Shown here: positions 43,201-45,406 of the stretch, one piece after another
Layout of the letters: every line of letters starts with the position of its first letter
Position numbering within the stretch: the first letter of the stretch is position 1
Assembly: GCA_964640215.1 (NCBI GenBank)
Contig: CAZXEW010000059.1
Span: 1 to 54,515 of the forward strand
Direction: 5' to 3'
Origin: an uncultured Gammaproteobacteria bacterium
Lineage (GTDB): Bacteria > Patescibacteriota > Microgenomatia > Daviesbacterales > UBA10151
DNA: 54,515 nt
Program-made: the position numbers and the translations under genes
The notes under the pieces: generated by a model
Database searches by the model: none
What the model was told of the DNA's origin: nothing
The model's input: only the letters and a program-made list of their open reading frames with translations

Positions 43201-45406
43201 TCCTAACAGAGTAAGTTTTATTTGGCAGTAGCGTAAGTGGTTCGTTGTTTGGTGGTGTATGGCGGGTGAATGAATTATCGATGGAGGTGGGAATAGAATT
43301 AATTATTTTATAAAAGTAACTATTGGCAAAAGTGACCTGATCAGTTGCGCCGGTATCGTTGATGTCTATAATGCCAGCGGCCGGACTAAAACTGGCTGGG
43401 GTGACATTAGCAGTGATTACTCCATTAGTGCAGACACGTGGAGTTATTGTGGGCGCGGCAGGAATACTAGAATTAGATGTGTCGGCGACATACGTAAAGT
43501 CGACATCATTGCTTAACGCATCTCTATTTGACACCATAACGGCATAACTATGACCGTTTACCAGATTGTAGACTGAACTACTTCGGGCTGTGCCAGTGGT
43601 AGGTGGATAATGATCGATTTTGAAACCAGCTTGAGAAAGTGTAGCTCCGAATACAAATGGCTTGACAGTTAGGTTTGGTGAATCCACTAATTCTGTTAGT
43701 CTGGTGGTTAAGATGTTACGGCAAGTTCCGCACCAGTAGAAACTATTAGTACCGGGCTGATTACTAACTGACTTATCGGTAATCCAGACACCATTGGCGG
43801 TGCCGGTCCAATTAACCGAGACCTGGCCGTTGCTTTGAGAGACCTGAGTCACCGGACTTTGAGGAGGGCAAACTTGGATGTTGCAAGCTTGGGAAGCTGC
43901 CCCAACACATGCAGCCCCACCATTAGCAGGAGCTGGGTTGGTACAAGTTCGGGTTTGGGTGCCGCCACCACAAGTAAGACTACAAGTACTCCAATCACTC
44001 CATCCGTCGTTTACAGGGCATGCCTGAGTGTTGCATGATTGAGACAGAGTAGTACAATCATTACCTGGTGCGGTACAGATACCTCCAGGTTGTGGCTGAG
44101 TACAGGTCCGAGTTTGAGTGCCTCCACCGCAGGCAACAGGACATGTGGCGGGACTCCAAGCTGTGCAACTTCCATTACCGGGGTCCTTACAGGTGAACGT
44201 TGTGAGTGTTCTGCTTCCTGGGGGTGGCGGGATGGCAGTACATTTCGTACAGCCACCCCCAGCGGCTGAGCACGGATCCACGGCACCAATGTTAGGAGGT
44301 GTACATTGAGAATTACAGGAGAGAACACCGCCGACAGGTGGGGCTAGATCTGCAGTGCACTCTGCGTGGCCACTATTAACAACCGGAGGTGATGTTCCGG
44401 TAGTTAACACGATAGTTTTAGGGCCGGGATCAGTACAAGTAGTAGTAAAATTGGGTGAATTTAGCACCGAGTAGAGTTGACCTCCAGGATTACAACTTGG
44501 TGAATTAATAATCCAACTGTGGTAGACGGTGCCGATATTTCCGGTTGTTTGTGAAGTAAAGGTAATTGGTTGACCAGCTATGGCTGGATTTGTCTGAAGA
44601 GTGCAGGAAGAAGTTAAGTTTGCGGGTGGGATATAACCTTCACCACCAGGACAGTTTAGGGTGGTAACTGGAACCCTGGCTGAGACAGGGTTGGACCTGC
44701 CATCTATGTATTCAAGGACGTAGTTATAAGTGGCGTTATCTACCAACCCAGGGGAATTATAAAAAGAATAATTAGGACTTAGGATTTGATGAGGTTCTAT
44801 TCCACTAAAGTCTTGTGAGTCATCGAGGATATGATCAGTTGTAACCAGAGCGGCGGCCCTTCTATTATCGAAACCGTTACCCTCACGCCAGAGTCTATAG
44901 TAATGACTAGGATCTGTATCACCTGGTACGGGTGTCCAGGAAATACGGACTGAAGGCGGATTATCTTGCGTGCACTGGGCTTCTAGTATAGGGGTTGGGG
45001 CAGGATAAAGCGAGGGTAGTGTTACATCAACTGAACAGTCAGCATGTCCAGTTGAAGGATCAGTGCTGGTTCCAGCAATTAAGACTACCCCTTTTACTCC
45101 CGGTTCAGTACAAGTTACGGTGAAAGTGTCTGAATTCACAGGTTGATAAGACTGACCTCCTGGCGTACAGCTTGGGTGATTGATGGTCCAACTGTAATAA
45201 ACCTGGCTAGTATTATTTACAACTTGGGCCTTAAATGTTATTGGTTGACCAGTTATAGCTGGCCCTTGTACTGCACAAGTGGCTTGAATATCCGTACCGG
45301 CGGCTTTACTTTTCAGGTTCTGATTTTGATTGGTTAAGACGACTCCGGTAGCGATCGAGGCTGTTAGGATGGTTAAAATTATAAAGCCGATGATCGTTTC
45401 TCTCAT
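40220..45406 (-). CDS. 1728-aa Cys-rich surface protein with TSP1 repeats, Ig/FN3-like modules and C-terminal dockerin-like domain
   Basis: N-terminal TM; [20 protein letters not shown]; paired GD...DG.IN.FD calcium loops; IPT-like module (ITNA...NLSGYNFG). Confidence 0.8.

Follow-up and report, generated by a model that had tools for sequence, protein, structure and literature searches.

The 54,515-nucleotide contig CAZXEW010000059.1 of assembly GCA_964640215.1, referred to here in its full length as the window, was deposited under the name of an uncultured Gammaproteobacteria bacterium and is placed by GTDB in the Patescibacteriota (Microgenomatia; Daviesbacterales; UBA10151). As established by listing and translating its open reading frames (ORFs), the minus strand carries one long ORF for a modular protein of 1728 amino acids with 72 cysteines, which is named P0001 in the following. 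The protein begins with a hydrophobic helix and a motif directly behind it, continues with PKD-like and Fn3-like beta modules that have cysteine-rich linkers between them and ends with a type I dockerin. About 1100 residues away from this dockerin anchor lie two tandem modules, TSR1 and TSR2, which an earlier note, drawn up from the letters of the DNA alone, had taken for thrombospondin type-1 repeats (TSRs) of a eukaryotic kind. The span given there, 43865-44170, is exact, both modules are encoded on the minus strand, and their family assignment stands, with the Pfam hidden Markov model (HMM) and the predicted fold both matching.

Both modules are genuine thrombospondin type-1 repeats. Scored against Pfam TSP_1 (PF00090, cut-off 21.6 bits), the whole of P0001 reaches 35.8 bits and TSR2 alone 44.5 bits (E 1.7e-11). 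TSR1 alone stays under the cut-off (16.4 bits, E 0.011); over its entire length it can be aligned with a profile built from 52 short TSRs of prokaryotes (hhalign probability 99.2%, E 1.4e-19) and is, judged by this profile comparison, clearly homologous to modules of the TSR2 type. When the TSR pair is compared with all PDB sequences by phmmer, the TSRs of human thrombospondin-1 (7yyk, 3r6b, 1lsl) come first (E 5e-22 to 1.5e-19) and are followed by UNC5, properdin, ADAMTS13 and BAI1; TSR2 is about 50% identical to TSR3 of human thrombospondin-1. TSR2 was modelled with AlphaFold2 on the basis of the 52 prokaryotic modules; the model has a mean predicted local distance difference test score (pLDDT) of 78.3, and for this predicted structure the top 50 Foldseek matches in PDB are all TSRs, the best of them again belonging to thrombospondin-1 (7yyk, 3r6b and 1lsl; TMq 0.51-0.52, prob 1.0, 52-54% identity). 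For a model of the tandem pair (pLDDT 70.9) the first Foldseek match is 3r6b (E 1e-7), the low TM-scores of this model being due to the free orientation of its two rod-like domains to each other.

The six cysteines of each module follow the order that is typical of group 1 TSRs (C-x2-3-C-G ... R-x-C ... C ... C-x4-C). They are located at positions 475, 479, 488, 500, 508 and 513 in TSR2 and at positions 422, 426, 435, 451, 458 and 463 in TSR1; in the TSR family, such cysteines are paired as C1-C5, C2-C6 and C3-C4. As read from the sequence, the ladder of tryptophan and arginine residues, which in the family stacks WxxWxxW of strand A with RxRxR of strand B, is reduced to W469, W472 and a single arginine, R486, in TSR2 and to one tryptophan, Trp417, and Arg433 in TSR1. 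Among the hallmarks that had been listed for both modules, WSxW and CSxTCG hold for TSR2 only (WSDW, CSLTCG), the corresponding segments of TSR1 reading SCTAW and CPVACG, and RxRxC is found in neither, both modules reading TQTRTC with one arginine. The peptide that had been described as duplicated does exist as a shared core of 11 residues, the copies of which differ at 7 of 33 nucleotides, so that conservation at the protein level is seen here. A recent tandem duplication was considered as the origin of TSR1 and TSR2 and rejected on account of this divergence within the core and of a DNA alignment that matches in 94 of 162 columns. TSR1 possesses two further cysteines, Cys414, which takes the place of the first ladder tryptophan, and Cys444, which lies within a four-residue insert; together they may form a fourth disulfide, Cys414-Cys444, that replaces a Trp/Arg contact. 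The G+C content amounts to 53-56% over the TSRs vs 43-48% in the flanks, a rise that could be cited in favor of a recent import of the modules; horizontal transfer was rejected as its simplest reading, as G+C follows the composition of the modules, which are rich in Cys, Gly, Thr, Pro and Ala.

TSR1 and TSR2 represent a short form of the repeat. In aligned tandem pairs, the canonical pattern (WSxWSxW, QSRTRTC, SESQxC) is shown by a part of the prokaryotic modules, but most of them, including both modules of P0001, have about two residues fewer at each of these places. The deletions are coupled over three strands (WSxW vs WSxWSxW, TRT vs SRTRT and SQ vs SESQ), and by this sequence pattern the short form appears to be shorter by one Trp/Arg ladder rung on each of them. 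The spacing between CGxG and the cysteine that follows amounts to 5 residues in 113 and to 7 in 23 of 140 prokaryotic modules, whereas 725 of about 800 animal modules have a distance of 7 and a single one has a distance of 5, a comparison that is biased insofar as the named prokaryotic loci were found with peptide patterns of the short module and the animal sample consists of matches to this query. Within these samples, the short form predominates in the collected prokaryotic modules and is almost absent from the animal ones. An HMM search in genomes of the window's own GTDB family, which is free of the short-pattern bias, likewise gave mostly short modules. An alignment of 52 short modules shows no variation at the first tryptophan, the arginine, six cysteines and three glycines and either W or F in place of the second tryptophan, while surface positions are freely variable. 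In a maximum-likelihood tree of 184 modules, which rests on 59 columns and resolves nothing deeper, the prokaryote/animal label needs 17 changes vs 58 with shuffled labels. For reconstructing the history of TSRs, the short form provides a clean character.

P0001 belongs to a block of five co-oriented genes at 38834-46194, which encode two small proteins with a helix and a QxxxKSxA motif, P0001 itself and two cohesin proteins whose membrane topologies are opposite (Table 1). The motif behind the helix of P0001 is present in five ORFs of the genome, among them both genes directly upstream. A motif scan of the P0001 dockerin reveals two segments resembling calcium-binding loops, one of which reads GDGVINSFD, and comparison of the dockerin region with PDB sequences gave a single weak match, the cellulosomal dockerin 2y3n (E 0.038). 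The two cohesins of the window retrieve each other by jackhmmer. The only other cohesin gene of the genome, located on contig C41, encodes 739 amino acids and lies directly beside a gene with a dockerin motif. Because this cohesin, too, adjoins a dockerin-motif gene, adjacent cohesin-dockerin pairs look like the rule in this organism, as far as motifs and profile matches tell. On C41 (982-5477) the cohesin gene is situated directly upstream of the gene for a 756-residue protein with two dockerin-like loops, DANCDGVVNAAD and DFNNDGVVNMVD. In the window, the five-gene block is followed by a gene for a Xer-type integrase (37806-38750), and a 1394-residue GyrA with an intein (Pfam Intein_splicing 84 bits, residues 128-639) is encoded at 32084-36268.

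Table 1. Features of P0001 and of the surrounding gene block, with positions in the window.
Feature	Position	Strand	Evidence
141-aa protein, first gene of the block; membrane helix and QQVNLKSQAS motif	45769..46194	-	no Pfam family
119-aa protein, gene upstream of P0001; membrane helix and same type of motif; stop codon overlaps the P0001 start codon	45403..45762	-	no Pfam family
P0001, modular Cys-rich protein with both TSRs	40220..45406	-	ORF translation; Pfam TSP_1, fn3, Dockerin_1, weak PKD match
N-terminal hydrophobic helix and post-helix motif, P0001 residues 1-34; export signal or signal anchor	45305..45406	-	read from sequence
TSR1, P0001 residues 413-464; divergent 8-Cys short TSR	44015..44170	-	profile comparison with short TSRs
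TSR2, P0001 residues 466-514; six-Cys short TSR	43865..44011	-	Pfam TSP_1, PDB phmmer, AlphaFold2/Foldseek
Fibronectin type III module, P0001 residues 961-1027; one among several beta-sandwich stalk modules	42326..42526	-	Pfam fn3 28.1 bits vs cut-off 25
Type I dockerin, C-terminal, P0001 residues 1620-1679	40370..40549	-	Pfam Dockerin_1 24.6 bits vs cut-off 22.9
208-aa protein, N-terminal membrane helix and cohesin; candidate docking partner	39554..40180	-	Pfam Cohesin 32.3 bits vs cut-off 24.1
238-aa protein, signal peptide, cohesin and C-terminal membrane helix; candidate docking partner	38834..39550	-	Pfam Cohesin 26.3 bits vs cut-off 24.1

TSRs are not restricted to P0001 in this genome. 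Contig C38 (664-1974, plus strand) encodes a type IV pilin-like protein of 436 amino acids with the N_methyl motif GFTLVELLVVIAII and two TSR-like modules, the first of which is the same eight-cysteine variant as TSR1 of P0001. In the tree mentioned above, the nearest module to TSR1 is a TSR of this pilin-like protein. Its gene is flanked by two further pilin-like genes. The window itself contains a full type IV pilus locus (7077-21311), in which PilB, PilT, PilC, a pilin, the prepilin peptidase PilD and PilM were recognized by their Pfam families; a 610-residue ORF within this locus (9483-11315) matches no Pfam family.

The assembly comprises 1.13 Mb with a G+C content of 44% and is 99.6% complete. 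Every listed genome of a sample from the same phylum has a size of 0.7-1.2 Mb. The ribosomal proteins L30 and L9 were not found in the genome by searches that match 13 and 10, respectively, of 14 control genomes. The absence of L30 and L9 is reportedly a pattern of the candidate phyla radiation (CPR) and its Microgenomates. Due to its small size, the uniformly small genomes of the phylum sample and the lack of L30 and L9, the genome fits the CPR type. A comparison of its YebC protein with 19 named genomes yielded identities of 30-43% throughout and thereby no discrimination among them. An oxidative folding pathway, which the earlier note had derived from the many potential disulfides, is supported by predicted proteins of the DsbB and DsbA types. 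A DsbB/BdbC-like membrane protein of 141 amino acids with a CVLC motif is encoded on contig C29 (DsbB PF02600, 42.3 bits), and two DsbA/Thioredoxin_4 proteins (94.6 and 91.4 bits) are predicted to be membrane-anchored, each through an N-terminal helix, and carry the motifs CPFC and CPAC, respectively. Of the DsbA and VKOR genes that had been suggested as a check, the former are represented by these two genes, and VKOR was not found in the genome; a WCxxC regular expression for thioredoxins was uninformative. Further very cysteine-rich ORFs are located at C31:2-1186 and C71:6602-10423 (394 amino acids with 31 cysteines, 429 with 29 and 837 with 58). The start of both C71 ORFs resembles a signal peptide, and the C31 ORF runs off the end of its contig. 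Probably, these ORFs encode more disulfide-rich surface proteins that are served by the same Dsb system.

The notion that TSRs are rare in bacteria fails for this lineage. Of 96 genomes from the window's GTDB family, 12 contain TSP_1; in the phylum sample it was detected in 9 of 401 genomes (about 2%), and in 14 well-known control genomes it was not found. Across prokaryotes, searches with two narrow peptide patterns in one genome per species led to 124 confirmed places; the patterns were derived from a five-sequence alignment, an alignment of 17 modules being too diverse for use, and are biased toward the short form. Among the best 80 of these 124 places, the Patescibacteria are represented by Moranii-, Staskawiczii-, Sacchari-, Nomura-, Yanofsky-, Magasanik-, Shapiro-, Gracili- and Paceibacterota. 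TSRs also occur in lineages with genomes of ordinary size, and the carriers among the same 80 places include Bdellovibrionota (2.6-3.5 Mb), Myxococcales of the Myxococcota (7.5 Mb), Rickettsiales (1.6-1.9 Mb), Thermodesulfovibrionia (4.2 Mb), Planctomycetales (2.9 Mb), Omnitrophota (1.7 and 2.4 Mb) and Pacearchaeota of the DPANN group (0.9 and 1.1 Mb). Five TSR records entitled 'uncultured Gammaproteobacteria bacterium' (TPA_asm) show 100% identity to loci of genomes (about 1 Mb) that GTDB assigns to the same family as the window, so that such titles are unreliable; the titles 'Bdellovibrionales', 'Pseudomonadales', 'Burkholderiales' and 'Methanosarcinales' of small (0.7-1.1 Mb) metagenome-assembled genomes (MAGs) are suspect as well.

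In 77 scanned prokaryotic frames the TSRs are combined with pilin N-termini (5), Dockerin_1 (4), CARDB (5), DUF11 (4) and also with PKD, fn3, VWA and S8 protease domains. Two loci from the same family encode a subtilisin-like S8 protease followed by five tandem short TSRs, and a 380-residue protein, again from this family, consists of an N-terminal part that looks cohesin-like by eye, one TSR and a C-terminal dockerin-like segment. Two viral contigs from IMG/VR contain long arrays of another TSR type (CxVSxWxxWxxC...CGGGxQxRxRxV), which resembles group 2, and a giant-virus bin contains a frame of at least 1704 amino acids with about 20 TSRs; the short prokaryotic form was not found among the TSRs of the viral contigs examined. 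For P0001, a word-based search of a collection of 5.8 billion proteins found no full-length homologue, every match covering at most 21% of the query. Animal proteins with many TSRs, whose scores add up over the repeats, dominated this search, and the highest bit scores for whole P0001 belong to SCO-spondin-like proteins from cnidarians and molluscs. Full-text searches of the literature yielded no publication that deals with type-1 TSRs in bacteria, whether of the CPR or not, only reports on type 3 repeats in giant genes of Omnitrophota and on animal-to-apicomplexan transfer. TSR surface proteins are frequent in the lineages concerned but unstudied, and P0001 is a further prokaryotic surface protein of the TSP_1 family, the TSRs of which appear to be a fairly ordinary adhesin or stalk module rather than a rare eukaryotic import.

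With modest confidence, we lean towards the view that the TSR pair, stapled by disulfides, serves a docked adhesin as a stalk or contact module. P0001 would be exported by the Sec system through its N-terminal hydrophobic helix, and its disulfides would be made outside the cytoplasm by the DsbB-type/DsbA-type pair. The C-terminal dockerin would then bind one or both of the membrane cohesins encoded downstream and hold the protein on the cell, with the N-terminal two-thirds projecting outward and the TSR pair residing in the membrane-distal third. Each short TSR is predicted to be a rod of three strands, stapled by disulfides and shortened by one Trp/Arg rung, and the TSRs together with the PKD- and Fn3-like modules may provide a stiff, protease-resistant stalk and a contact surface directed at another cell, which is probably a host among the bacteria or archaea. 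An adhesive role in general is plausible for a protein of this composition.

Several points weigh against this reading. The scores of the dockerin and of the cohesins barely exceed the Pfam cut-offs, and the 208-residue cohesin protein finds no match among PDB sequences. TSR1 was modelled at low confidence (pLDDT about 50-70), and the bias in the collection of short and long modules has been described above. If the N-terminal helix is not cleaved, P0001 would be anchored at both ends. Finally, the TSRs of P0001 may be pure spacers. In this case, which we consider possible though unlikely, the pair would serve solely as a rigid rod of some 8-10 nm, and target recognition would be left to the N-terminal PKD-like or other modules. 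Such a function would agree with the nearly uncharged surface of modules that possess one basic residue each, with the free variation around an invariant Cys/Trp/Arg/Gly core and with the fact that the same module appears in many copies ahead of heads as unrelated as an S8 protease and pilins. On the other hand, TSRs of characterized eukaryotic proteins usually bind, and the occurrence of the TSR1-type variant with eight cysteines in the adhesin as well as in the pilin-like protein hints at a common target and mildly favors a contact role.

According to the earlier note, the modules would bind glycosaminoglycans or other glycans and mediate adhesion to a eukaryotic partner, comparable to thrombospondin, properdin or apicomplexan TRAP and CSP. 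This proposal can draw on the similarity to TSR3 of thrombospondin-1 and on the presence of TSRs in MAGs of Rickettsiales, relatives of which inhabit eukaryotic cells. However, the basic groove is missing: the ladder arginine is the only basic residue in TSR1 and TSR2, the net charges of which are 0 and -1, and prokaryotic short TSRs contain on average 1.65 lysines plus arginines per module vs 4.5 in animal TSRs. With one basic residue per module, heparin-type binding as known from animal TSRs is unlikely. Nor is a eukaryotic partner indicated by a CPR-type genome of 1.1 Mb, since the members of this group that have been cultivated live on bacterial or archaeal cells (PMC11623550, PMC10936435), and the other prokaryotic carriers are mostly episymbionts or predators of prokaryotes. 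TSR2 carries the O-fucose sequon CSLTCG, but the Ser/Thr of this site is found in just 34 of 52 short modules; a match to the O-fucosyltransferase family PF10250 is lacking in the genome and equally in the control genomes, which renders this search uninformative. Neither O-fucose nor C-mannosyl-Trp, both eukaryotic modifications, defines the TSP_1 family. Altogether, we regard adhesion to a eukaryotic glycan as very improbable. A recent import of the TSRs from an animal or protist, or a eukaryotic contamination of the assembly, for which the SCO-spondin-like top matches and the elevated G+C content could be adduced, can practically be dismissed, as the modules lie in frame in an extended bacterial ORF, with gyrA, ruvC and the genes of a type IV pilus on the same 54.5-kb contig, are of the short form that is nearly absent from the animal sample, cluster apart from animal modules in the tree and find animal matches that score high merely through many repeats in a small part of the query.

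How ultra-small episymbiotic bacteria recognize and attach to their hosts is largely unexplained, and type IV pili are so far the only structures that have been genetically tested for host attachment, namely in Saccharibacteria (PMC11623550, PMC10633639). The locus described here offers a compact candidate, in which a small and very stable module would be presented distally on a docked stalk protein while the same module is found on a pilin-like protein of the same genome. Taken by itself, P0001 is one more example of something recurrent in its lineage, with a function that is predicted from sequence; our data add to the view that TSRs belong to the normal surface equipment of prokaryotes. What is worth keeping is the short form with two rungs, the Trp-to-disulfide variant that P0001 has in common with the pilin-like protein and the cohesin-dockerin context. 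It is tempting to go further and to regard TSRs as an established prokaryotic module for attachment between cells, rather than an import that happens now and then from eukaryotes, with its own two-rung subclass, exchanged among episymbionts and predators of the Patescibacteria, DPANN, Bdellovibrionota, Myxococcota and Omnitrophota and mounted interchangeably on type IV pilins, cohesin-docked stalks and proteases. We put this forward as a speculation that is distinctly unlikely to hold in full. If it were true, the eukaryotic TSR could descend from a prokaryotic pool, and the eight-cysteine variant shared by P0001 and the pilin-like protein would point to two delivery systems with a common ligand on the host surface.

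Compared with group 1 TSRs, including human thrombospondin-1 TSR2 and TSR3 (PDB 1LSL, 3R6B and 7YYK), UNC5, properdin and ADAMTS13, the modules of P0001 exhibit the same six-cysteine framework and the same order of the WSxW, CSxxCGxG, RxC, C and CNxQxC blocks, and an elongated three-strand fold is likewise predicted for TSR2. They differ from these TSRs in being apparently one rung shorter on three strands, in having two tryptophans (TSR2) or one (TSR1) together with a single arginine, in being almost devoid of basic surface residues and in the putative fourth disulfide that takes the place of the first tryptophan in TSR1. Furthermore, their host is a prokaryote without evident machinery for C-mannosylation or O-fucosylation, as far as can be said from a search that lacked a positive control. 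The TSR adhesins of apicomplexans (TRAP, CSP, MIC2) resemble P0001 in that a TSR is displayed on a cell that needs to attach to another one, the display of P0001 being a prediction. Unlike the P0001 pair, to which they show weak sequence matches (E 1e-3 to 0.1), apicomplexan TSRs are of the group 2 type with another disulfide pattern and bind heparan sulfate on animal cells.

Cohesin-dockerin pairs are said to exist outside cellulosomes as well. With such non-cellulosomal pairs and with the anchoring of clostridial cellulosomes the locus shares a C-terminal type I dockerin on the cargo and anchored cohesin proteins that are encoded alongside. In contrast to these systems, the cargo is an adhesin-like stalk that contains no glycoside hydrolase, each anchor has one cohesin and a plain membrane helix, and the binding is a predicted one. 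Also close to P0001 are TSP1-domain surface proteins from other prokaryotes that are known as database entries (Patescibacteria, Bdellovibrionota, Myxococcota, Omnitrophota, Rickettsiales, DPANN). P0001 stands apart from them as a protein without a full-length homologue, in which a TSR pair, a dockerin and two adjacent cohesin genes make up one architecture among many; it has in common with them the same short module, with up to 83% identity over 48 residues, set in secreted mosaics with PKD, fn3, CARDB, VWA, pilin or dockerin domains.

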